A stretch of DNA of 61,314 nucleotides, counting the filler, from Jimgerdemannia flammicorona (lineage: Eukaryota): NCBI GenBank assembly GCA_003990765.1. It is 3 parts of 3 records of this genome, joined end to end, with 100 filler letters (N's around TTAATTAATTAA, not from the genome) between each part and the next. Parts side by side here need not be neighbours in the genome. Positions count along the whole stretch, not along the records: positions 20,477 to 40,847 come from RBNJ01001697.1; 2 more parts are not named here. The stretch is one strand, 5' to 3'. Positions 113 through 55,599 of this stretch are shown in pieces; position 1 is the stretch's first letter, and each line of letters begins with the position of its first letter. The notes beneath the pieces were generated by a model. The model had not been told where the DNA came from. It made no database searches and saw only the letters and a list, made by a program, of their open reading frames with translations. The position numbers and the translations under genes are program-made.

Positions 113-3100
113 CTTGGAATTTCTCAATAGAGCCCTGGCTAAACAGAGCAATTGCCTCTGCCCTTGGCTAAAATTGCCGCCACCCTCACTCACGGGGTGA
201 TCCAACGTGGTGAACACGGCGTGGTCGTTACGACTAGCAGCAACGATCGTCTCCTCGCTTTGCGAATCATCTCTCGTGACTGAGGACGCTGAGGACAAGG
301 GGCGGGTCTCTATCAACTGGACACGACGAAGGGAGTCCCAGATATCATTGTCATCATGCTCGTGGAATGGATCAAGGTTTGAACGAACCTAAATGGACAA
401 ACCGAATGACAGTTTTGTTAACGACTGATCCATTTTCATTTCAGGGCGACGGACGAATGGAACACGGGTGAAATAGGTACCGTGCCAGTGAACAGCATAG
501 GGTCTTGTGGAATGATGGTCATTCGGGACCGGAGGTCCTCAACGCCAATCGATGTGATGTCAACACCGTCGATGTGGATGCTGCCTTCGGTGGGCGTGAC
601 GAATCGAAAGAAAGAGATTGCGAGCGTGGATTTACCCGAACCGGTTCTACGATAGGTCGGAAACGTTGGAGGCGAGTTATTACAGACAAACGAACAGCAC
701 AGTCTTTTCTGTATTTAGTAAGAAGCTGAGCATGTAAACCCACCTTCCTACAATCCCGAGCTTTTCTTGAGGTCTGACATCGAACGATATGCCACGGATT
801 ACCCGTTCCAGGTCAGGTGCATATTGGATCACTAGGTCCCTAACTTCAATCCGCCCCGCAGTCGGCCACGCGGCCGGTGGACGATGGTTCTCGATGATTG
901 CCGGTGGTTCTTGCGGCATAACAACGTATTCTTGAACCCGCTCTACGGCGTTGAGGTCCATCTCGACTATATATTCCAATTGCAAAGGGTTACGCGAGCC
1001 AAAAAAAGATAGCTTTGCATATTTCAAACATTCTTTGGTGATTAAAGCAGCCAGAAAAGCACTACAATACCTTGGGTGTACTGGCGCACAATCCAGTTCA
1101 CTTGGAAGACAAACTGTAGCGCATAGGTCAAAGAAAGACCGACCATTCCGGCATCCATTCTGTCGAGGTTCAACAGGATAAAAATTCCAGCCAGAAAGGC
1201 AACACAAGCACCTATTGAATCTGCACGACTGGATCATGAAATCCAGATTAAAAAGAAGAATGTAAGCAACATGGCATTCGACTTCCTAATATTCAAATTT
1301 CGTTCTTAGTAAAGTTAGATTACTCACATAGACAACCAACGATTACACATCCACGTCAAATAGAAAGTTCTGTTATTGTTGTCGATTCGTTTATATATCT
1401 CGGCCATAAAGCGAGATTGCTCGCCGAATGCCCGAATTGTGGCGACACCACTGAAGAGACGCAAAAAGGGTTCCATCAAAATTATGAAACTTCGTCAAAT
1501 GAGAACGGAAAATACAATACGAACACAACTCTTATCACTGCAACCTACATGAGCGTTTCACCAAAGTGAGAGTACAGAGGACTCTTTGTGACTGAATCGA
1601 GACGTTTGAGCTCACGAGAGCATCGAATGTATCGTCTGCCAATATACAAATAGATGAAGACTGAGAAAAAAAATAGATGGCATCGTGAGAGACGTAAGTG
1701 AGCAAGGGCCAAACTGCTGCACACCATGTTCAAGATACACCTTACAAAACCATGTATACATACCAATTGGCATGGCAGCCAACAGAAATTCGGGAGTGAT
1801 AACGCTAATGACCACAAGCACCGCCGACACGGCCAGAATGTACATAAGCAACGAACCACAGCTACTCGACAACCTGGAGTCGATGGTCTCAAAATCCTAC
1901 AACAATTTCGTTGTCATTCAGTATTGCTACTTCGATTTGAAAATCCCACAAGCCCAACAAAACAAGCCTGTGCTTACCTTACTGAAACGATTCATGATTC
2001 TGCCAACAGGGGTCGTATCAAAGAACCGCAACGGAGCGTTGATGACCGCATCAAGCAGCTTTACGTAAAGGATTCTCGAAGCCTTCAGGCTGCCAAAGTA
2101 CTGCACCGACATACGCAGAATTTGAGCAAAGATTGTGGAGAGAGTGATAATGACGTAGACACCAAGATAGTAATCAACATTGATCTCTTTAGGCGTTGAT
2201 GGACCCGTTTCGGATCCATTGTTGCCTGCAAAAGTGGCGAAGCTCCGGAGATTGGATGATACGGTATCGAACGCCGGGAAAACAATTTGATTCATCAACT
2301 TCTCTGCCGGGCCGAGGGGCATGTAGGTATCATGTACTGTAATGGTCGACATCGTAAAATTTTCCGCAGTGGGTACGGAGTAAACCGATGACCAGATCTT
2401 GAGCCACCAGCCTTCGCTCACTACGCCTAGACGAACCACCAGAAACATGAAGAGCACGACCAACCAGAAGAATAGGCCGCCAGAAGCCTTGTAATACATC
2501 CCGTAGATTTGCATCCTTACTTGGCCTTGCTCACGTTTCTCTTCTTGGATCAGAGTGTGCGCCTTTTTATCGACCTTGGCCGGCTCCGCGGCTGCAGCAT
2601 CTTGTGTGTGACCGCTCGTCTCACCACTCTCGTTGTCAATAATGTTCTTGATAATATCCTCAACGACCGGTTCATGACTGCTAGATCCCTTTCCGATTTG
2701 CTGGGCCTTGAACTCGTCCTCATCAATGTTATCACCGTCCGCCAGGACCACGCTCAACAGCAACCTGTCGCTCAAAACTTCCGAAACCTTCTTCTGAAGC
2801 ACAATCTCGCCGCGGTCTACCTTGACAACGAAGTTCGCGCCGGACAAACACAACCTGACATGGTGTGTGACAAGGATCCTCGTCCTCCCCTTCATCAACG
2901 GTCCCATCAAGCACTTCTCGTAGATATGTCTCGCCGTGTGAGAATCCACGGCGCTCAAACAGTCGTCTAACAGCACGTGTCTCGCGCGCGAGTAGACCGC
3001 GCGCGCCAGACTCACGCGCTGCTTTTGACCGCCGGATAGCGTGATGCCCTTCTCGCCGATCTCGGTATTGTCGCCGTCCTCGAAAATCTCCAGATCTCTC

Positions 3101-6100
3101 TCCAGCCCGCAGACGGACAGCACCTGCTTGTACCGCTCGTCCTCGTGAAGCTGACCGAAAAGGATGTTCTCGCGGATCGTTGCGTGCTGGAGCCACGCGG
3201 ATTGGGAGACATAGGCCACACTGTTCGGGATTAGGCCGGTCTGGGGATCTACAAGTTTCGGCGACTCCGAGGTCGCTCGCGGCAGGTAGACCTTGCCCTG
3301 AATCAGATCCATCTCGCCCAGCAGAGCCATCAGCAAAGATGTTTTACCACTGCCAGTGGCGCCGCAGATGAGCGTCATCTCACCCACGGGGAAGGAAACT
3401 TTGAGGTTACGGAGAGCGAAGGAGGTCCCGTCCACGACGAGAGCCGGAACCAATTGATTATTGGTTTTCCTTGCATTCTTCGCGGCATCGGCGGCCTCGA
3501 CGGAGGCAGAGTGCCACTGAAACGTGGCGTCTTTGAATCCAATCTCAACTGCTCTCCCCTCATCATCAAAGCCGTCACGAGCGCTATCAACGAGCTCCCT
3601 TTCCGCCAAAAACTTCTCGATCCTGCGCAGGCTCACTTTGGCGGTGACCAGCTCCATAAGCATCTCGGGAAGGGCGTTGAGCGGCAGACGCAAGCGGTCA
3701 AAGAGGGCGATACTGGTGAAGGCGACGACAGCCGTCAGCTCTCCGTGCTGGAGCTTGACAAAGGAGATAAAGGTGACAACCGTGACGACGATGGGAGAGC
3801 CGAACCAGAGAAGGGTGAAGCAGGCGTTGGTAATGAAGATACTGATTAGGCGTCTGATTTCAAGTTCGCGGGAGGCGAGGATGCGGGCTCGGAAGTTACC
3901 GGACCAGGCGAAGAATTTGATCATACGAATGCCTTGAAGCAGCTACATAGAATAGACGATTATTTATAACGGAATGCATGTGACGAGCCAATACAAAATA
4001 TGAACCGTTTTCAGCAAAACAGGGTCCGTGACTCTATGGCTTCCACACTCCCAGATACACCAACAGAAACAAGAAGCTGCCTCATTCATTCGACTCTCAC
4101 CTCATTCATCAGTGATACCCTCTTGTCTCTAGCGCTCATGAGTTCCTCCTGACACTGATCATATCTCTTCTGCGCGAGCTGGTTCAACGGCATTGTGATG
4201 ATCATGACCGACATCCCGACGAAACAGGACCAGCCTAACAGGGTATACAGGAAGTAGATACCGATGGCGATGGAGACGGGCGAGTTGTAAAGGAAGTAAA
4301 GAAATCCAAATATCCCAGCGATGCGGTGGGTGTCGACGGCCTAGATGGATTGTTGCGAGGAAATGCATCCGTTCATGTTGAGCATGCCTGTCGTTCCTCA
4401 AATAAAAGGACCTCGAAAAGCGGAAATTGCAAATATTCCTACCATCAAATTGGTGATCTTGCCCGTGTCGGCACTGTTCTCGTCCTTTTCGTTATTTTTC
4501 TTATCCTTCTTATCATCCTTTCCTTTCCCATTCGATTCTGCCGTATCCTTCTTCGGATCTTCCGCACCGTCATTTTCGCCCTTCTCCTTCTGTACCATGC
4601 CGGTCATATCCCTCCTCCTCAAGCTCTTTGCGTAGAGCTCGCTATCCAGCATAGCCCTAATCCTAAGCTCGAGCGATCTCGCGTACAAAAACATTTGACT
4701 CGCATACACAGTCCTCCAGAGCGCGACGACCATCATGCCCACAATGTACAAGTAGGCGAGTTCGCGCTGTGTGGGGTCGCGGCGGCGCTCGGGCGATTGC
4801 ATGAAGGCCAGCAGTCTCGATAGGAGGACAGGGTTGGCAAAGTCGAGGAGCATGTAGACGACCGAGAAGTAAGACTGCCGCAGGATATCGGGTCCGTTGG
4901 CGGCGAAGATGCGCCACAAGAGAGACGACTGGTGGCTCGTGCGGAACTTTCGGTACAGGTTGACGGCACGGTCACTTGGGACAAGCTCCCACAGGTCTGT
5001 GGCGGATAGGGTCTTGGTATTGCCGAGGCGAATCATGCCGTCCATCCAGGAGAAGATGAGCCAGGAGAAGACGGAGGCCGTAGATTCGGCGCTGGCGGCG
5101 TGCTCTTCCTGTGATGCGTGGACGTTTCATTATAAAAGAGCCGTGCATATTATATACTATATCTTGAAAAAAAAAAAAATACATACCGAACTAAACCCGA
5201 TACCAGTCTCCCGTGTGACAGCCCAAACTAGCTCTTTAGGTATAGTGAATGAGACAGTCAGAAGCACTAGCACATTGACAAAATTTGCGACGCCGCTCAG
5301 CAGGAACTCGACGGACAAACGATCCTCGGGGGCCGTTTCATGGATCAGGGATCTGAGTTCGACAACGGCAAAGATGGCTATGAGGCCGTAGAAAGTGCGG
5401 AGGAAGGGCTGGATGCTCGCGGACCCGATCTTGTGTCGCAGGGCCAGGAGGGTCAGCAGCGTCGAATAGGACTGGACAGGTTGGATAAGATGAGGTGTTT
5501 AAGTCGGTGTGGGATTTGGAGTGAGCGATGAAGATTCAACGCTATGGCCGCTGATGTGCAGGTCTTTGAGCGCAATCCAGGCCTGTGAACTCCTGCCCAA
5601 TTGTCTCAACGTAAACGCAAAGCCTCCCTGAAGCTTGTACACATGTAAACCCAAGCCATCGGCGTAGTATTTACGCTCTATTTCCCAGCGTTTCAAGCTT
5701 GTGCCCCTACCATCCCTACCCTTTACCGATTGTACTCACCCAAGCAATCAACGAGCCCACCGGACCAACCAATATAGGCCATTCCCGAGTGCCGCCGCCG
5801 TCTTCCTGCGAGCTGCGGGACCTCCAAAAGACCAGTGCGGACCACACGGCGACCTGAGCGGCCGAGAAGACAAAGAGGGCTACGATGCTCCTTGAGATCC
5901 TCCGCTCGACTGTCGGATAGTCTAGTTGTTTTATAGTCTCCTCATAGAAGGGCAGAGAGGTTGTGATGGTTTGCTCCGAGTCTTGTTGCTGGGGGACGGA
6001 TTGGTATGGCGATAGGTGCGAGTGGCGACGGCCGAGGAGGTATGTGAAGAGGGAAGACAAGACGGAGAAGGCGATCACGGCGAGTGGAAAGCCGCTGTAG

Positions 6101-26147: not shown

Positions 26148-29100
26148 ATTTTTAAATTGATTGCCAATGATTAATATACTCTCTACCACTTATTTTAATA
26201 ACTTCTATTACTCATTATAGTATTTTTTACTACTTATTCCAACTATTCAACATTCTCTCAACTTATTACTTACTTTTCTATACCTCAATTTATTACTTAT
26301 TCTAATATATCTCAACTTGTCACTTATTCCAACATATCTCAACTCATTATTTGTTCTAATATATCTTAACTTATTACTAATTTCACTACTTATTCCAGTT
26401 AGTAGAGAAGAAAAAAAAAAAAAAACAGAAGATTTGAAGTTTTTATAATTCTTCTCATTATGTCATCTGAAACCTCACTCTCTCTTTCTATATTTCTAAT
26501 ACTCCTTTTTTTGTAGCAGGGGGGTGGGGGGGTTTCTACTCATTCTAGTACTCTCTACTACTCATTTCAGTACTCTCTATCAGTTATTTCAATATCTTCT
26601 ACCACACCTTCTACCACATCTTCTTTATCTCTTTCAATTCAACATAGCCTTATCTTGACTCATTATATCACTCACTCAATACTGTATTGCTCATTTTATC
26701 CATCCAATCAATCAGTAGAATAATTAATTCTGATAAATCAAATAAATTAATTGATTCACTTATATTAATTATTTTATCTTATATACTCTATCTTGCCTAC
26801 TGGTAGGTTCACAAATAAATAATAGTAATAGTTAATTTTCTTATATATTGTATTTTATCCTGCTCTATTCTACTCAATAATTATCAAAAGAGAGAATATT
26901 CAAGGTAAAAAGTACTTTCAGTTGACAATGTTAAATTCTTTCTTATATAGATAGTATATAAGCTACTTATCAAAGATAGCAATAATAGTAATAATAGTGA
27001 TATTAGTGATGACAGTGATGATAGTGATGACAGAGATGATACATATTAATAATAGTAATAACAGTAATAATAGTAGTGGGAGGAAGTTCTGATAAAAAAT
27101 TATAGAGATACTTCTGGTCTTATTATTTATCAATCTTATAGCTATATATATAACAGCCTTTGTAGAGTAGCTGATAGTGGATATAGGTTATAATTGAATG
27201 ATACATTTTTATCACAGATAACCAATTTCACTTTAAGCTAATTTTTTTTTCTTAGAGTCTACAACTCTAAAGTGAGATCTGCTAACTTCATTTACAACAT
27301 CTGATCAAGATGAAGAAAGACTGGAGAATAATTCAAGAAATACTTTTGATAGCTAAGTTATTGAATCAGTATATTATATAGTAGAGATCTCAAAAGAAAC
27401 AGAAGTAAGTCTTTATGAGTATTCTTGTACTCTTTATTTAAAAAATATTTTTTCCAAACTTATATACAACTCATGACTCAAACTGCAATCTATTCTCAGA
27501 TCAAGGCTCAGTTCTACTATTGGATAATTCAAGTTTGACCATATTTAGCTTCTAATAAATTAAAGAGATTCAAGAGTAAGTTATTCAGTTTGAGTAACAC
27601 CAGCTTGACTATTAAGACTTTGGAGTCAATATCCAAATTGAAATTAATTATTCTTAATCAAGTAATCTACTGGTCAGCAGAAGTCTTTAATAATAAAGAA
27701 AACTATATCATCATTAATAAATATAGAGAGATAATTATAATAGTAGTGAGAAGTCTCCATGATGAAGAACTTTGCCACTATATCAATTAGGTTTATGAGA
27801 ATTGTGTTAAATATTGAGTAATAGGGAAAAGGGGTATAATAAGCAAGAAGAGAGAGTTTGGAAAGAAATTGGATATATGGCAATATTGGTAAAGAGTGGA
27901 TATTTTGATTTTTCCAAATTTCTCATATTAAATAACTTTTTGAAAAAATTAACTAATTTTATTAAAAATATCTAGAGATATATAGAATACTCTATCTCTA
28001 CTGAAATTTCAGAAGTAAAGTCAAAGAGTAAGTTATATACAAGTATGATACAGCCTACATAATAATAATGGCTATAATCTTGAAATCTTTGACCAGATTG
28101 CTAGAGTGAACAGCAGGCCAGCTTAGCAATAGCTATATATACATTCTTGATGCAATTCAGTATATCATATAAGTAGTGATCTGAATGAGTCAGTTCAAAT
28201 TGATTTAAATTATAACTGTTTCTGATTAGAATGGATCTAAATTTATTATATGATTAATTTGAATCAATTTAAATTTATTATATAATTAATTTGAATTAGT
28301 TCAAATTGTGTCTGCTCTGATTCAAATCTTTGAATAGCTGATTTGAATTACTAGATTTAAATCACTAGATTTGAATCACTAAATTCAAATTATTGAATTT
28401 GAATCACTTTATAAGAGGGTTTACTTTTTAGGGTAACTGTTACATAGTTCTGGAAGGGTGTTCTAGAAGTTCTGGATATTCTGGAAGACCGTTTTCTTAA
28501 GGTCAAGATCAATTTCATATGGAGTACATCCTCTATGCTTATTGATTTTAAGTTTGGGTTGACGTCTCTACCAAAGTTCTTTTTTGGACTAGTTCTGGAT
28601 GTTCAGGATTTTCTATATTTCAGGAAGTTCAAGAAACTAAGACCAGCTTAGTTGAATTGGTGTATCACTGCAGACAATACCCAATTAGGAAATTTCATAA
28701 TGGGGTTACCTAACAGAGAGTGGATTTACTTAAGAGTGGTTTGTGGGTTATTAAATGGGTTTATTCACTATTCATGATATTGCTATACTAGGAGTAGTTG
28801 TGTGAAGGAATATTGTGGGGAAGTATTCAGAAATGTTCTTGTGTATTTGAGTCTGAGATTCTGAGGTCTGGGGGAGAGGATATTTATATTAGTGAGGGAC
28901 TATCTGGACTATGCTAAATATGGATGTAGCACTTAGTGTCTTATTGAGTTGGAATGCAGTCACGTAGTACAAGTGTGATCTGACATATCAAGAGATCATC
29001 TGACTACTGAGTCAGTTCACAGTCATGTCATACAAGGCTAATCTAACTATACTATGACTGCTAAGCTATTTATAGGTTTAGACACTATCTGGTAGTCTTC

Positions 29101-29213
29101 AATGACATCACCAACAATGACATCATCTCTGCATCTTTCTCCGGTAACATTCAGGTTACACAACCCTTTGGCAACACTTTCAACACAGTTTCTGGAGAAA
29201 AGCTACTAGTATC

Positions 29214-31242
29214 ATGGTGACCAATGAGCATCCAGAGGTGCGTACTGGGCAGGGTGGCCCTGGAGCATTTGAATGGCAGCAAGTGGGGAGAGGCCCCAGC
29301 TTGGGGGGCAGTATGAGGGGCCTGCTGGCGGGGGGCCATGGTGGAAGAGGGGGCGGAGCTGGAGGTCAAGGGTCTGGCAGGGTGAGCTTTGCAGAGAAGG
29401 TGAAGGGGGGTCGGCAGGGAGCTGGCCTGGAGAGCTGGCTGAGAGGGGGGAAGGTACCGGTGGTGGCTTCCAGGCAGCAGCCTCTTGGGGGCACCTCTCT
29501 AGCAGGCCATAGGAGTGGAGCTGGGGGGGTAGCGGCTGGGGCGGGGACTGCTGATGGGGGGTGATGGGGGATCTGGAAAAAAATCTAGATGGGACTGCTG
29601 ATGGTGAGCTGAGTGGTGGAAGGGCACGAGGCCCGGGGACATGGCAGATGGTGTAATGGGACTGGCGGTGGCTCCGTTACTCAAGAAGTCAATCTCGGCA
29701 TTCGCAGTCATGCTGTGCTTCTGGGGCTTAGCAGTGACGGCAAAAATGGTGTTGGGGCTTATCGCTAAGTAGGTGGTGGGAGTGGCTTCGGTGAAGTTTC
29801 TGAAGAGACTAGAGGGGGTGGAGGTGGGGTTTGAGGAGGTTGAACCGCTGGAGGAGGCGCTGAAGGTAGGGTTGGTGGTTGGGGAGGTGTGCGTTCCGAT
29901 GGCGAGGTATCTGAAATGGGATCTGAGGGTGGTCCAACTGCTGGTGAAGGGAGTGCCCACGGCGACGGCAATGGAGACGAGGAAGAGAGTGGAGGATGTC
30001 ATGGCAGAGTATGGAGAGGTGGTGGATATCGGATTCAGGGTCTGGGAAGAGATGACGCTCAGGACTGGGGATGTGGATGTGAGGATTCGGCTGGCTGGGA
30101 AAGAGGCTACTGGGAAGATGAGGGACTGGCCTTTGGTGTTGGTCTGGGGAGCTTTCCTGTGCAAGGTGACGCAGGTGAAAGGAAGTGAAGAAGAGGAGGA
30201 AGATTTATTGGAAGTGCTGGAGGAGCTGGATGGGGCTGTGGAACGGCGAGCTAAGGCCTGGAAGACTTTCGAGGAGTCGACGCTCCTGGAGGTGGTGGAT
30301 GGAAAGAGGATTTGAGTGGACAAGGTGCAGTGGGAAAGGGCTCAGGGGCGGAAGAGGCAGAAGGATCTGATGGCTAAGCTGGGGGGTGGACTACAGAAGG
30401 ATGCAAGCATGAAGACGGGTGCAGAAGGGGCCAGAGTGAGTGTCTGGGCTGGGGAGAGGAGTGGGAACGATGGGGCAAAGTCAGGGAAGGCTAAGGAGGC
30501 GAAGATTAGTGACCCATATGCTGACGGCACCTTGGAGGTTTGGGATGATGGCTGGGAGAATTCCCCCACCCCTTCCCCTCTTATCAGGCATGGCCCGGCT
30601 TCCAGGAACAAGTCTGGGGAGGACATGATGATGCTGGGGACCCAGCAGGTGAAATTCAGCATTCCGGAGGTATTGGACGGGGACCGAGTAGTGGCAGCAG
30701 GGGAGGAGGAACTGGTGGATGTCCCAGAGGTATGGGATGAGGATGCGAGTGTGGGAGCTGACACCACGATGCTGGATGGAGGGAGGCCAGTGACCCCTGG
30801 TGGAAAGGAGGTGGGGAACCTACTTTAGATGTGCCGGATGTTGAATAACCTGGCAGCAGAAGAGCTGGGGGAGGTGGACTTGCATGGGATGAGTGACGAG
30901 CACTGGGCAGGAATTTTGCAGGGGGAAGGAGTGGCGATGGTGCTGAAGGCAGAAATCCTTGTGGTGTATCTGGAGGAGGAAGGGTATGAGGTGGATAAGG
31001 AGAGGGAGGTGGAGTTGGTGGTAGTCGCTGGGGAGAAGGCTGAGTACTGTTGGAACAGGTGCCATGGGTTGCAGCTTTGGCAGGAGGCTTGCATCGAGTA
31101 CTGAGAGGAGTTTGAGGAGAAGGCTGATGAGGAGATGAATGAGCTGTTGGCGGGACTGGAGGCTCAGAGGGCTGAAGAGGAGGTGGTGATGGCTGAACAT
31201 AATCTGGACATAGCACAGGAGAAGAGGGGCATGGAGCAGTAG
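29214..31242 (+). pseudogene. LINE ORF1 (Gly-rich N-terminus, RRM-like core, acidic C-terminus), disrupted
   Basis: VQLLVKGVP...EYGEVVDIGFRVWE...RTGDVDVRIRL core. Premature stops near 29562, 29770, 30313, 30826 and 31102. Confidence 0.85.
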
Positions 31243-31272
31243 GGATTGATTGAGAACAAACCGTATTTTACT

Positions 31273-34200
31273 ATGAATAGTACAACTAACATTTTTTCTT
31301 TGAATGTGAATGGGCTGGGGGGCGCAGTTCGATGCAGGAACATTTTTATTTAGTTGAAGGGATTGGAGGCCGATCTCTTCCTCTTGCAGGATGTCAGGTG
31401 CGAGGATGATGCTGATAGGATGGAATGGACCAAAGAATGGGGTGGTATGGCAACTTGGAACAGCAAGGTCGGGATTCTGGTTCGGAAAGGCAGAGGGGAG
31501 ATAAAGGATGTGAGGAGCTGGGGAGAGAGACTGGTCTGGGGTGAGTGGATTCGTGCAGGTTGGGAGCCGGTCACTGTTGGCTCCTGTTACTGCCCTGCTG
31601 TGCAGAGGGAGCGTGTGGATTGGGTGAAAGGGCTCCAGGAGAGTGGGATCCTTGCTGAAGCTGGGTTGGATATGCTTGGAGGAGACTTCAATATGGTTCG
31701 GGATGTATGGCTGGATAGAACTGATGGAGGACAGGGTGCAGAGAGCAGGAGTGGGGGGTTAGCGACATGGGAGGAGGTTGAACAGCTAGGGGCACTAGTG
31801 GATGCTGGTAGGGAGCACTGGGGGGACAGAAGGGTATATACGCATTGGGCTGGAGGCCTGGGGACAAGGATTGACTGGATTCTGACAGCCGACTGTTGGG
31901 GCCGTGATATTTGGAAGGTGTTAGAGGTAGAATGGTGTCCGTGGTCAGATTACTGGGGCCTCTTGGGACAGGGGTGTTTTGGGGGAAGTAGGGATGGGCC
32001 TGGACATTGGTGCCTAAATTCCTCCTTGTTGGATGATGAGGCCCGGTGGGAGGAGTGGGCAAATGACATTCAGCTGAAGGTGGCGAATTGGCAGCAGGAA
32101 GGGGCCACGATTGAGGTTCGGTGGATGAGGATGAAAGAGAGGGCCAGGATGTATTGGAGTGAGGCTGGCAGAGTGGCTGGGAAGCAGTGTAGGCAGAAGG
32201 TGCATTGGGCTTCTACTAGATTGGCCAGGCTCCTGGAGGAGTGGGCAAGACTGAAGGCAGTGGAGGGAGAAGAGGATTGGAGAATAACGAGGGTAAGGAT
32301 GGAAGTTGGGGAACTGCAACAGGTACTGCGGGAAGAGGAAGAGTCAAGGGTGCAAGGCCTGGTGGCATGGCTTCGTTGGCAGGGGCTGGAGGAAGGGGAG
32401 AGGCCTTCCAAGTTTCTCACAAGGACACTTCAAGCAAGAAGGGCACAGCAGCAGTGGGAAGGGGTACTTGGCTCGGATGATGTACTAGTGCATGGGGTAC
32501 AGGACATCCTTAGAATGCTGAAGGCACGATGGAGTGGCTTGTGGAGTGAGGAGGAGGGTGGGGCGGACGCTACAGCCATTGACCAAATATTAGAAGATTG
32601 GCACCCACTGCAAGCTGAGGGACTAGGTGACCTGGTGATGCCTGTAAAGGAGGACGAGATCCACCAGGTTCTTGCCATGACAGCCTTGGGTACGGCGCCT
32701 GGGGAGGATGGCCTCCCTTGGGACTTCTGGAAGCGAATGGTTGGAGTCCTGGGCATATTGGGGGAGTTGACAGCACTGTGTGACTCTATATTGCAGTCAG
32801 GGAGATGGGTGGGGGAGCAAGACCTTGGGCTGGTGATGCTGCTTTATAAGAACAAGGGAAGGCAAGAGGATTGGAAGAACTGGCGGCTGATAATATTGCT
32901 AGATATGGACAGGAAGTTGGTGACTAAGGTGGTAGTCACAAGGCTACAGAAGGTAGTCCAGCAAATCGTGGGTGTTGAGCAGCGGGGCTTCATAGGGGGT
33001 TGGCTTATTAGAGATGGCATGGCCTGGATACATAGAGTTATTGAGGGTGCTCGAGCCTGTGGACTAGATGGGCATCTCGTCTTCTTGGATCAGGAGAAGG
33101 CTTATGACCGGGTGCGGCAAGTCTGGCTGGCTAAAGTATTGGATAGAATTGGAGTCCCGGGCCCATTTTGGTCGGCAATGGTCAGCCTACTGGAAAGGAG
33201 TAGGGCTGCACTAGTGTGCAATGGGCATCGAGGGGTGGCTTTCCCTCTGAGTAGGGGAGTGCCCCAGGGGGACCCACTGTCCCCATTTTGTATGCTCTTT
33301 CCTTGGAACCTCTGATGGACAGGATTCGGCGGAAGATCGTGGGGCTCTCTATCTATGGCATTGGCTGGAAGGTTGGAGCCTTTGCGGATGACATGGTGGT
33401 TGGTTTGGGAGGGATTGCAGATGTCGAGGAGCTCCGAAAGTCAGTGGAGTAGTATGAGGCGAACTCTGGGGTGAAGCTGAATTGGCACAAGTGTGAAACA
33501 ATGGTGCTGGACAATGGCTTGGTGGGTGGAGAGGTTATTGGAACAATTGTCCCCACCGGAGAGGCAGTGCGGTACTTGGGCATCTATTTGTTGGTTTATG
33601 GGTCTGTTTTGCCCAGGCTGTGGTGGGAGCAGAGGATTGGAATTTGGGAGGAGGACCTGCAGGGTTGGGGGGGTCGACACTTCTCTCTGACAGGAAGAAT
33701 CTCGATTTTGAATGTATACTGGCTGCCGAAGCTGTGGTATTTGGCCTATCATCTGGACTTCCCAGCCTGGGTAGTGAAGAGATTGGTGAAGGTGGCCAAG
33801 GGATGGATTTGGGCTGGCAGACAGAGTCAGATTGGTTGGGAGACTTTGTCCCTACTGGTGGCGAGAGGCAGTCTTGGGCTGGTGGACTTCCCCAAATGCC
33901 TACACTGCTTGAGGGCTTGGTGGCTGAGGAGGGCGGCGGAGTTGCATGGAGGGGGCTGGGTCCCTCTGCTGCAGAAGATATGGGAGAGGCAGACGTCGCC
34001 TAAAGGCTTGACTGGTGATCTTCTTTCATTGGTTGGGCATCAGAACACTGCGCAACTGAGATACAAAGGCTTCTGGTGGGGGATAGCCGAGGGGGCACAC
34101 TGCATTGGTATTCGCTGGCAAGGGGATGAGGGGGAGAGGGCTTGGGACCCGGTGTTGTGGAGATGGGATAGCATTCTTCTGGGAGGAATGCCTTTACTGG

Positions 34201-34928
34201 AGTTTAACATTTGTGATGGCATCGAATGCCAAAGGGGTCCGGGCCAGGATCTGTGGCCTAGTGGTTGGCAGGGTGTTGGAATTGGTGAGGAGTGGGACTG
34301 GCATAGGGTTTGGACCTGGAGTGCCGCAGTGAAACAGTGGATGCCGCCAAAGTACTGGGTAGTCTGGTGGTGTATTCTGAGGAGGAATGTGATGCTTAAC
34401 TTCCACTCAGGACACCTTGTGGTAGGGGGCTGTTTTGACTGCGAGGAGTGCCATAATGTCGGGCAGGAAGGGGGATTGGTACAGACGCCGGAACATTGGC
34501 TTGGGGAGTGTGAGGTGTTGGGTGACTTTTGGCAGGCCATTGGGGACCGCTTGGGGGTAAGGCGTAGGGGTGATGATATATGGGGGAGGTGGGAGGACCT
34601 GAGGGATCGATTGATAGGAGGGGTTGGGGAAGAGTGGATTACTCTAGGCTGGGCATTAGTTATTTGGGTTGGGCTGGCCAGTCACTGGTTATTTGTATTT
34701 GAGAAGGAGAAGCATCCGAGCTTGGGGAGCCAGTTAGCGAGGTGGCAGTTCCTTATGGAGGATACCTTGACAGGCTGGTGGCTTGGTTGGGGGCTGCAGG
34801 GGGGTCAGAGGCACCGCTTGGTGGTGAAAATCTGTAGTCAGAGTGGTGGGAGGGTTGGAGTTGTAGGTGATAGGGTGGTCTTTATACGTGACGAGGTGGG
34901 GTGGGGCCACCTGATGGGGATCGGATAG
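31273..34928 (+). pseudogene. LINE ORF2 (APE endonuclease, reverse transcriptase, C-terminal Cys/His finger), disrupted
   Basis: SLNVNGL, LLQDV, GGDFN, RIDWIL, APGEDG, LDQEKAYD, GVPQGDPLSP, AFADD, YLGI, CEEC...EHWLGEC. Stops at 31351 and about 33450; frameshift near 33290. Confidence 0.93.
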
Positions 34929-37900
34929 TAGGTGGTGATATTGTAAACTTATTCATAGACTGGTAATAAAGACGGAGTCCAAGGGACTATAAAAAAAAAA
35001 AAAAAAAAATGACATCATCTCTGATGAAGGAGTCATCTAGGTAGAGTGGTTCGTGGATTACTTCTCCTTGTTCGCTGAGGTAATAATACATTGGAACTTT
35101 GTCACCATCCCACAGGATAGCATCATCTGTCTTGTATGCTGGACAAGGTGTTGATGGGTAAAGGAGGGGTGCATCATCTTTGCTTTCATTGAATTCACTG
35201 TCTGCATACCTTCTATAAGTTACAGCACTATGAGTTGCAGAGTTGTAGTAAGCTGGTGGCTGTGGCTCATGTCACTCATACTTGGGTGGTGGAGTGGTTG
35301 GTTCAATCTCGAGGGTTGTCTGAAGGTATAGGTTGTGTTCTCATTATAGTTGAAGTAATTGGGGGTAAATGTAGGTTGGTATTCGTGTCAGTGGTCATTG
35401 TCCCAATAAGTCTTATATGTGGTTATGAACTGTTATAAGTTCATCAGCAAGATTGGCAGTGTGATCAGAGTTGGTAGAGATCCTTGGCTTGAGGTCATGT
35501 CAGCATCAGAGGGATCATTGTCTTCTGCTTCATCTTCATTGAAGTGGATTATATCATAGACATCCTTTATAGTATATCTGACTTGAGGCATTTGTAGAAT
35601 ATGGTCATTGGGGTGTGGGAAGGTTCTGTCTGTGGTCTGGACATACTTGAGATACTTGTGGTTGAGTTCTTGTATCATGTCATCGATTTGACGGTAGGAC
35701 AGAGTAGCAACCATTTCGCTGGTAGTAACATGGAGGTGAGGAATAAAGGTGCTGTACTCATAGAAGAGTTCTCAGTATTTGCAGGCAATGAGTTTTTGGT
35801 GTTGAGACATCTGAGTAATGTCTGTATCATAGTAGTGTTTGACCATGTCTTTCAGGAGGCAGTTGATCTGGTAGTAGCTTGAGATTTGTCCGATTCGGTG
35901 GGCCTTGCTAATCATGTTCAGAGCTTTCCATCAGGCTTCCATGAAGTAGAGGGGTGCTAGACTATGGATATTCATAAGGGGCAGAGGGGGTGTGGCTCAG
36001 TTGACAATGGCATTCCAAATATCATCATGGATATAGTTGTAGATCTCAGTGGTCATGTTTATATATGTATGTTCAGAAGTTGTAGTTGTTGTTTGTTTTG
36101 GTTTTCTGTTTCGGCACATCTTGGTACTTGGTATATATGTATTTGGTTCTGATTGGTAAGATTCTGTTTATGTAAATCTTGTATTCCATGACTTCGTATT
36201 GACTCAGCTTTGTGCACTGTGACTTTGGTTTGACTCAGCTTTGTGATCTTGCAGGTGATTTCCAGATTTGTTCAGAGGTTGCATGTGATTTCAGTGGCTT
36301 GTTCAGAGGGTGATGTGTGATTTTGGTGGCTTGGAGGTTGTGCGCTTATACACTTGACTTGAACCACCCAATTCAAATCTCAAATTTGAACCTATTATAT
36401 GATTTATCAGTATATATAAACAAAAGAACATATGAGCAAAATATACAAATGCTTATATATACTATATCAATATCAATAGACCAGTCATCAATATTTTATT
36501 GTACTGATGATACTTTAAGTCAGACTTCTTTAAACAATGTTCAATCTTCTTTAAATAATGTTCTACACTATACTCCACATTCTGAAGTCTGGTAATATTA
36601 TACTTAGACTAGTGAAAATGAATTTACTTATAAGTATTGTAAGTAATTTTTTTTTTTTTAAAAAAAAAGTAAAACTTGTAATACTTTGAATATATTTATA
36701 GTTTGTTTGATAAATGTGTAAAATTTTTAAAATACAGACAGAAGTACAAGACACATGGTGGCTCTACTACAAATATAATAAAGTATTTAAAAGCTCAACA
36801 TTCAGATAAAATATAATTAAATATAGTATTAAGTAAAATTGATATTCTAGCTGTAGTAAGTAGATGATCTCTCTTTAATTTTAGTATAGATTCAAAAATA
36901 TATCTTTTATACCTCTTAAGTTTTTTTTTTTTCTTTTTTTCTGAAAAACAATTTAGCTATATTCTACATCAGAGTTTCAAAATTGACTTCTCCATTTGAT
37001 TATATAATAAAGACCAACCATTTATAGTTATTGAGAGTACTTCATTACAAAGTCTCTTTGGCCTTATCAAGTCTAATTTATATACTCCAAGTACTGATAC
37101 TATTCATAATAATATCATGAAGATCTATAAAAAAGAATATAATAATCTCTGTCAAAAACTCCAGATAAAAGTGTTCAGATTGTTATATATCAGTAATATT
37201 AGGGATATCATTGAATCAAATATGGTTGCTAACTGTATTTCAAATTTTACTACAGAGTACTGTAGGTAAAATTTTATTCATAATTGATATCTGGACATCT
37301 CTAAATATCATTTCATTTCTTAGTATTACTGGACATTAGATTGATATCAATTAGTAGCTTCAAACTCTCACTTTTGACTTTATGAAGCTTGAGGGTCCTC
37401 ATTCTGGAGAAAATATTACAGAAGTATTCATAAACTATATTCAAGAGCTTGGAGTTACAGAAGTTTTTAATTTTAAACTGATATTAAAGAAGAATCAAAA
37501 GAAAAAAACATGTTTTTTTACTTTTAATTATTAACTACTTTCTATATAATTTTATATGAATATCAAAATTTTGAAATGTAGATATTGTTCATTACAATGG
37601 ATAATACTTCTAACAATATTACATTTCTCAACATTTTGGCAACCAAACTTCAAAAAGAAAATATAATCTTTAATATAGACAATAACTATATACAGTATTA
37701 GGCCCATGTTCTGAATCTTGCTGCTCAAGATTATCTCTCACAACTCTTTAATACATAATTGGAGTGAAATTGACATAAGCTCTAATACTATTTCAAAGTT
37801 GCACAAATTGATTATTATAATCTGATCACTACTACTACAGCAAAGAAAACTTGCTTAACAATATAAAGTAATTAATCTTGCTCTAAAAGAACTTATTTTG

Positions 37901-54764: not shown

Positions 54765-55599
54765 TGTAAGCGCACAACCTCCAAGCCACCGAAATTACAT
54801 GTCACCCTCTGAACAAAGCCACTGAAATCACACACGACCTCTGAACAAATCTGGAAATCACCTGCTTGATCATGAAGCTGAGTCAAACCGAAGTCACAGC
54901 ACACAAAGCTGAGTCAATATGAAGTCATGGAACACAAGATCTACACAAACGGAACCTTACCAATCAGGACCAAATGCATATATACTGAGCACTGAGATGC
55001 ATCGAATCAAAGAACCAAAACAAACAACAACCACAACTTCCAAACACACAAACATGACCACTGAGATCTACAACTGCATCTGTGCTGACATTTGGAATGC
55101 CATTGTCAACCGAGCCACACCCCCTCTACCCCTCATGAATATCCATAGCCTGGCCCCCCTCTACTTCGTGGAAGCCCGATGGAATGCCCTGAACATGCTT
55201 AGTGAGGCCCACCGAATAGGACAAATCTCAAGCTACTACCAGATTGGCCGCCTCTTAGAAGATATGGTCGGACACCACCACGATACAGATATGACCCAGA
55301 TGTCTCAACACCAGAAGCTCATTGCCTGCAAACATCGAGAACTCTTCTATGAGTATAACACCTTTATTCCCCGCCTCCGAGTTACTACCAGCGAAATGGT
55401 TGCTACCCTGTCCTATGGCCAAATCGATGACATGATACAAGAAATCAACCACAAGTACCTCGAGTATGTCGAAACCACAGACAGAACCTTCCCGCACCCT
55501 GACGACCATATCCTGCAAATGCCTCAAGTTGGATATGCCATGAAGGACGTCTACGATATAATCCACTTTGATGAAGACAAAGTAGAAGACAATGATCCC
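54765..55599 (+). mobile_element. Second, less mutated copy (5' part) of the ORF-containing LTR-like unit
   Basis: Starts TGTAAGCGCACAACCTCCAAGCCACC, the reverse complement of the 36350 end, and stays colinear with 36350-35510 until the LINE junction. Confidence 0.88.
54919..55599 (+). CDS. Unknown protein encoded inside the LTR-like unit (N-terminal 227 codons, truncated by a LINE)
   Basis: Open frame with no stops. The same frame is conserved in copy 1 (for example MVATLSYxQIDDMIQE.NHKYL), where the stops arise from C-to-T changes. Confidence 0.7.

Follow-up and report, generated by a model that had tools for sequence, protein, structure and literature searches.

A complete gene under purifying selection lies within the long terminal repeat of a fungal chromovirus

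Long terminal repeats (LTRs) are generally regarded as non-coding, and a solo LTR as a remnant that is inert or at most cis-regulatory. Fungal chromoviruses bearing a dUTPase are known from Postia, Phanerochaete and Tuber; in the accessible part of that report an additional open reading frame (ORF) appears in a figure legend as 'add. ORF' with its position not stated, and additional ORFs are listed in the supplements (PMC2864245). Where the available sections of other reports describe extra ORFs in LTR retrotransposons, these occupy the internal region, as with the env-like sense ORFs, Grande gene23 and the additional ORFs of RIRE2, Retand and Boty (PMC7264820, PMC11963269), the ORF3s of bdelloid elements (PMC5408684) and ORF0 of Retrosat2 (PMC3485330). 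Of these, Grande gene23 is described as having a dedicated promoter and a nuclear product. In the LTR retrotransposon Cer1, a spliced mRNA yields CERV, which is needed for export of the genomic RNA (PMC10309623). Two retroviral arrangements, again according to the accessible passages, are similar in layout: the foamy-virus genes Tas/Bel1 and Bet are 3'-end accessory genes, with Tas expressed from an internal promoter (PMC8003144), and mouse mammary tumour virus (MMTV) carries the sag/naf ORF in the U3 region of its LTR together with a second U3 promoter, P2 (PMC9412291). An exact-phrase search of the open-access literature returned no report of a retrotransposon gene wholly inside an LTR; subscription papers or supplements may hold one. 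Here we describe such a gene in Jimgerdemannia flammicorona (assembly GCA_003990765.1), starting from a ~2-kb repeat unit in a stretch of 61,314 nucleotides, filler included, joined from three parts of three records and referred to as the window. The chromovirus whose LTR forms this unit is termed family A, and its sister family is termed family B.

The family A LTR copies are ~2.06 kb long with termini TGTAAG..CTTACA. In the 231-Mb assembly, a DNA search with the LTR gave 4,773 candidates, the best 40 of which yielded 42 matches on scoring, nearly all 87–88% identical, and a search with reverse transcriptase (RT) gave 2,774; these are candidate numbers and not copy numbers, and the family probably comprises thousands of copies. 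The LTR flanks were readable in 45 of the 68 copies examined, with a primer-binding site (PBS) on the 3' side in 17, a polypurine tract (PPT) on the 5' side in 14, a solo configuration with target-site duplication (TSD) in 14, and no other arrangement. Both LTRs lie on one contig in two cases, and the internal region of ~6.3–6.5 kb encodes gag, dUTPase, protease (PR), RT, RNase H (RH), integrase (IN), SH3 and chromodomain in that order; the zf-CCHC match in gag is weak, and the chromodomain at the integrase C-terminus matches PF00385 with an E value of 3.9e-17. One complete element measures 10.7 kb and has the TSD GCCAC/GCTAC. The family PPT, AAGAAGGGGAGAGT, adjoins the 3' LTR on the upstream side, and the conserved PBS, TGGTAGCAGCGG, begins 3 nt past the LTR and shares its start, ACTTGGTAGCAGC, with that of family B (e.g. 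L032:3145-3165 and L282:1426-1447). No exact tRNA partner of the family A PBS was found, the one candidate being an imperfect tRNA-like site, and an Rfam search of the element gave no match. With TG..CA LTR pairs, a 5-bp TSD, the order PR-RT-RH-IN, a chromodomain and a PPT, family A has the features of a Ty3/gypsy chromovirus. An earlier note, made from the window sequence alone, had asked whether gag-pol, with PBS and PPT, lies between pairs of the unit, and it does; the alternative that it offered, a non-autonomous gene cassette moved by an integrase, is refuted, since gag-pol sits between the LTR pairs, and a non-autonomous LTR cassette, whether a terminal-repeat retrotransposon in miniature or large retrotransposon derivative (TRIM/LARD) or an inverted-repeat unit, was rejected because gag-pol is present inside the repeats. 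Contigs from four sequencing runs span the whole element including the U3 ORF, and are uninformative on expression. It is virtually certain that the window unit represents an LTR from an autonomous Ty3/gypsy element with chromodomain and dUTPase, and that the U3 of this LTR holds a real 365-codon gene needed in transposing lineages.

Two other arrangements were observed around family A LTRs. At L035:278-1113, ~125–960 nt past the 5' LTR, a ~280-codon frame without an ATG runs in frame with the downstream gag; its divergence by codon position is coding-like (0.058/0.048/0.113, 13 copies), it has no Pfam match and only weak similarity (25–31%) to the equivalent region of family B, and a shared 1-nt indel lies immediately 5' of it. 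This frame might extend Gag at the N-terminus, through splicing or a non-AUG start. In L025 two elements stand head to head: ~280 bp past one LTR lies the 5' end of another, inverted and with its PBS.

The U3 ORF occupies LTR nt 289–1386 and is 365 codons long (412 from stop to stop), which corrects the ~400 codons of the earlier note. The conserved start is not ~155 bp into the LTR, as had been suggested, but the ATG at nt 289 (36056 and 55054 in the window), present in 78 of 80 copies and matched by a TAA stop in 77 of 79. Among 74 copies, the codon at the upstream nt 154 reads ACG in 40, ATG in 26 and another in 8, and 12 of the 74 have a net frameshift between nt 154 and nt 289. Because the ORF ends before the main TATA box at nt 1577 and the AATAAA poly(A) signal at nt 1701, it lies in U3, with the U3/R border placed from motifs. 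Base shuffling of the ORF (2,000 shuffles) gave open stretches of 75 codons on average and 203 at most. Intact ORFs, having the ATG and neither stop nor frameshift, were found in 4 of 27 copies selected by DNA similarity and in 26 of 75 when copies selected by protein similarity were added. An antisense frame in register was rejected as a shadow of the sense ORF, having 4 stops.

Selection on the ORF is evident from several comparisons. Among the 27 DNA-selected copies, pairwise divergence at codon positions 1, 2 and 3 is 0.080, 0.036 and 0.150, and none has a frameshift inside the ORF, with shared indels flanking it on both sides. When mutation classes were separated and C>T and G>A changes set aside, the ORF had 3 nonsynonymous and 24 synonymous variants shared between copies (28 copies), against 6.7 synonymous expected (p=4e-12), and the RT control had 0 and 16. 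Shifted frames of the ORF (30:1 and 21:1) gave no signal, and neither did the 3' non-coding part of the LTR in the same test. Differences within six LTR pairs (3.6–7.0%) comprise 157 nonsynonymous, 94 synonymous and 16 stop changes, where neutral deamination expects 149, 99 and 19 (p=0.55); 97% of these differences are transitions, and CpG sites differ in ~25% of copies. Two of the eight fetched pairs (L191/L190 and L194/L195; 47 nonsynonymous, 75 synonymous, 3 stops) were excluded from the neutral-decay count as discordant. The differences in these two pairs are mostly synonymous, as between lineages, and the pairs are possibly subfamily recombinants, different insertions or assembly chimeras. 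The U3 ORF is under purifying selection comparable to that on RT. Since differences within pairs are neutral and shared variants are constrained, it was the lineages still transposing that were under selection, and copies once inserted, both window ones included, decay via C-to-T and G-to-A changes. The dN/dS and frame-conservation check that the earlier note had called for needs care for this reason, the differences between the LTRs of one insertion being neutral deamination decay; on shared variants it shows constraint, and the proposal of an LTR-borne accessory gene in U3 holds, with LTR pairs around gag-pol and a strongly purified ORF.

The two copies in the window are laid out as follows.
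36351–36355, minus strand: 5' TSD AAGTG of the solo LTR (copy 1).
35008–36350, minus strand: 5' part of the copy 1 LTR, LTR nt 1 to ~1345, within U3.
36132–36237, minus strand: promoter-like module 5' of the U3 ORF, of putative function, with TGAGTCA at 36237 and 36206 (31 nt apart), CCAAT at 36156 and TATATA at 36137.
35008–36056, minus strand: 5' part of the U3 ORF of copy 1, dead, with ATG at 36056, 6 stops and a 10-nt deletion at ~35342.
29131–35007, plus strand: long interspersed nuclear element (LINE) within the U3 ORF, with endonuclease and RT remnants and a poly-A tail.
35008–35022 and 29116–29130: 15-bp TSD of the LINE, AGAGATGATGTCATT.
29078–29115, minus strand: final U3 ORF codons of copy 1, with a 1-nt deletion at 29090 and the family stop TAA at 29080–29078.
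28410–29077, minus strand: core LTR of copy 1, with TGACTCA at 29014, TATAAATA at 28888, AATAAA at 28765 and terminus CTTATA.
28405–28409, minus strand: 3' TSD AAGTG of the solo LTR (copy 1).
54765–55599, plus strand: LTR copy 2, nt 1–834 only, then LINE-related DNA.
55054–55599, plus strand: U3 ORF codons 1–182 of copy 2, stop-free.

Copy 1 is a solo LTR of the autonomous chromovirus. The ~2-kb solo-LTR-like unit of the earlier note was recovered on the minus strand from 36350 to 28410 and measures 2,049 bp once the LINE and one LINE TSD are removed; its 5-bp TSD, its TG...CA-derived ends and the order of TATAAATA and AATAAA near the 3' end were also as described. The copy 1 termini read TA..TA where other copies have TG..CA, and the core LTR ends in CTTACA in most family A copies. 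Copy 2 is 86% identical to copy 1, and its frame is open from 54919 as reported; its remainder is beyond view, as the contig stops at the window end. Both window copies of the ORF are broken. Copy 1 has two frameshifts inside the ORF, unlike the DNA-selected copies: the main one, put near 35475 in the earlier note, is in fact the 10-nt deletion at ~35342, with 6 stops preceding the LINE, and the C-terminus it had read as '...QIVSKPINSLAVIV*' is an artefact of the second deletion, at 29090. The surroundings, window 20600–61314, form a nested cluster with at least 6 copies or fragments of one LINE family in both orientations and with strong GC skew, 65–76% identical to the LINE inside copy 1.

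The encoded protein has an isoelectric point of 4.3, a net charge of -48 and no cysteine. Residues 1–170 are of mixed charge, and the remainder is acidic, with abundant proline and aromatic residues. No transmembrane segment is present, the highest 19-residue hydropathy being 0.86, and the protein thus lacks the hallmark of an env-like ORF3. A search of 1.84 billion representative proteins gave three matches only: the metagenome protein P0124, a fragment that is 95% identical, and P0126 (E 1.6e-4), a repeat protein rejected as spurious because its match spans 38 residues. P0124 is 67% identical over aa 115–364 with in-frame indels only, and retains 32 of 33 W/Y/F residues, where neutral simulations (2x2,000) retained 21.5 on average and never more than 30; no closer relative of it was seen among the best 150 of 5,172 candidates in the genome. 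No family match was found in Pfam, PHROGs or NCBIfam, no homologue in sequence searches of the PDB (sole listed match E 0.57), and no score above chance in the ESM Atlas (best 0.81). An AlphaFold2 model from a 3-row alignment had a predicted local distance difference test (pLDDT) score of 32.5, which makes the fold unusable. No ORF-related locus was found in the viral, JGI metagenome or prokaryote contigs searched and no RT-related locus in the viral contigs, and tblastn of the ORF against 25 metagenome chromo-integrase loci and 30 family B loci gave no match. The absence of a family match, the broken state of both window copies and the stop-free state of only 4 of 27 DNA-selected copies could be taken to indicate a non-functional passenger, a gag or transposase remnant or a non-autonomous gene cassette. 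This is scarcely credible given RT-like purifying selection, the conserved distant homologue and the separate presence of gag and pol inside LTR pairs, and it is refuted by the selection test, the LTR-flank survey and the conservation of P0124.

The reading that we favour, at a probability of roughly 0.4, makes the protein a nuclear factor that regulates transcription of its own element, working like foamy-virus Tas from an internal promoter. The ~170-aa N-terminal domain, which has a short basic stretch and is common with family B, would be joined to a strongly acidic, aromatic-rich tail serving as activation surface, features generally associated with acidic activation domains; Tas itself has an acidic activation tail. 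Two properties of the protein weigh against this assignment, in that the tail is more conserved than is usual for activation domains and the N-terminal domain lacks the overall basic character (21 D/E vs 14 K/R) that DNA-binding domains usually have. The same acidic protein with near-invariant aromatic residues might instead antagonize host defence, blocking a methyltransferase, a chromatin factor or an RNA interference factor as a decoy or DNA mimic. The host mutates copies heavily, as the transitions and CpG differences above indicate, and the family still reached thousands of candidates; however, there is no family or structure match, the GW/WG motif is absent from the P0122 sequence, and copies are silenced and mutated nonetheless, so that an anti-silencing role, the example given in the earlier note, appears unlikely, although it deserves some weight and ranks second among the functions considered.

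Candidate motifs of a dedicated promoter are present inside U3. TATATA stands 75 nt upstream of the ATG in 76 of 77 family A copies, accompanied 5' of the ORF by CCAAT, two TGAGTCA sites and an A/C-rich leader. All three frames between pol and the ORF ATG carry stops, so the ORF needs its own message. It would be transcribed from a promoter in LTR nt 1–288 and end at the LTR poly(A) signal, giving an mRNA of ~1.5 kb. An ORF wholly inside the LTR comes in two copies in each element and persists in solo LTRs, and such a promoter together with the LTR poly(A) site would make each LTR a complete cassette; judged from the motifs, it is fairly probable that the cassette is self-contained and that expression could come from 5', 3' and solo LTRs alike. 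Several points tell against this promoter. The motifs are short and A/T-rich, and would decay slowly regardless of function; L016 has 4 copies of TGASTCA, which we take to be an AP-1/Gcn4-type site, one of them outside the LTR, where 1.16 would be expected, and a count of 4 was reached in 4 of 200 shuffles; and a pair of these sites, 31 nt apart, lie in a probable small duplication. A transcript from this position would cross the main TATA box, and this layout also suits negative regulation or copy-number control, in which the protein, or upstream transcription crossing the main promoter, damps the element; in the accessible text on MMTV the U3 ORF encodes the repressor Naf as well (PMC9412291). 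The very high copy number and an acidic aromatic tail that fits activation better make such damping quite improbable.

Family B helps to place the gene. Its RT is 48–49% identical to that of family A, and the PBS start and the domain order gag-dUTPase-PR-RT are common to both. Its LTRs are 790–830 bp long, and a 276-codon ORF lies between pol and the PPT, its stop codon touching the PPT; a position inside the LTR was rejected for this ORF, which is internal. Family B loci with the post-pol ORF are listed here.
L282:8072-8974: post-pol ORF of family B.
L247:2299-3126: post-pol ORF of family B.

The family B ORF is under selection (12 nonsynonymous and 17 synonymous, 7.4 expected, 19 copies), and its protein also has an acidic tail. 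In 15 of 17 anchorable copies (20 fetched) TATAAATA, the same 8-mer as the family B LTR TATA box, stands 71–72 nt before the ORF start, so that both families have a TATA-like box 71–75 nt upstream of the ORF. This equal spacing argues for a dedicated promoter and against a CERV- or Rev-like cofactor of RNA export, particle formation or reverse transcription, possibly made from a spliced message. Such a cofactor has a precedent in the LTR retrotransposon Cer1, as far as the available text describes it (PMC10309623), and would accord with ORF selection as strong as that on RT, but the protein is strongly acidic and has no RNA-binding signature, and we consider this role improbable. The N-terminal domains of the A and B proteins are colinear at 20–23% identity, and a global score of this domain was matched by 0 of 5,000 shuffles, with ends that were chosen post hoc. 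Other comparisons speak less well for common descent: the hhalign probability is 0.9% (E 0.06), the profile comparison stands at ~1 in 100 against shuffles, the whole-protein local score was matched by 111 of 3,000 shuffles, and the A LTR and the B tail have no DNA similarity except for the TATA boxes and one 25-bp patch. On these sequence comparisons the two ORFs are probably homologous. The internal pre-PPT ORF of family B suggests a route into U3, and the LTR sizes fit, the family A LTR consisting of a ~1,390-bp cassette and a ~675-bp core and the family B LTR measuring ~800 bp. If plus-strand priming shifted to a new PPT on the 5' side of an internal cassette of promoter and ORF, that cassette would become part of U3, and the odds lean toward the gene having entered U3 when the PPT moved upstream of a post-pol cassette whose layout family B has kept. 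A third chromovirus family in the genome, with short LTRs, showed no such ORF, which also counts against the proposal and implies that the gene is not needed by all chromoviruses here. More doubtful is the wider possibility that the gene represents a hitherto undescribed family of regulators in fungal retrotransposons, with the entire expression unit of promoter, gene and poly(A) site taken into the LTR through a PPT shift, leaving solo LTRs as self-sufficient sources of an activator or anti-silencing factor; if true, a trans-acting protein made by solo LTRs may have driven expansion to thousands of copies.

Further features were recorded in the window and the assembly. An ABC transporter gene lies at window 1927–3942 (minus strand); its best named matches are in Mortierellaceae (66–71% identity) and in further early-diverging fungi, and the host is probably of Mucoromycota type. 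A stretch of 394 bp at window 20643–21036 matches L038:1856-2249 at 96%, representing a different, apparently younger repeat. L083 and L084 contain clusters of several tRNA genes and may be contigs of organellar or bacterial origin.

Compared with known systems, the element itself is an ordinary member of its superfamily. Fungal chromoviruses, like family A, have TG..CA LTRs, a 5-bp TSD, a PPT, the order PR-RT-RH-IN-chromodomain and a dUTPase; unlike those in the accessible part of the published survey (PMC2864245), family A has a complete gene under selection in the U3 of a 2.06-kb LTR. The additional ORFs of other LTR retrotransposons, in the sections available, resemble the family A gene in being extra conserved ORFs of obscure role in most copies, but they are internal, whereas the family A gene is wholly within the LTR and its protein has no transmembrane segment and no homology found to theirs. 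The foamy-virus layout, with a 3' accessory gene and an internal promoter in the available description, is that of family B before its PPT; in contrast, the family A gene has moved into the LTR, its product has no Tas homology detected in the protein searches, and transactivation by it is only proposed, by analogy. MMTV sag and the family A gene are alike in being located in U3, but MMTV is a vertebrate retrovirus whose sag is a superantigen and the family A host is without adaptive immunity; no homology to sag was found, and the family A protein has no Pfam match at E<=0.5. Family B shows a plausible path from an internal ORF to U3, and the small orphan protein offers a handle on retrotransposon self-regulation or silencing evasion in a repeat-rich genome. 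The selected orphan gene inside the LTR is a new twist on the accessory-ORF theme, and a complete gene under RT-level selection in U3 extends the retroviral arrangement of MMTV to a fungal retrotransposon.

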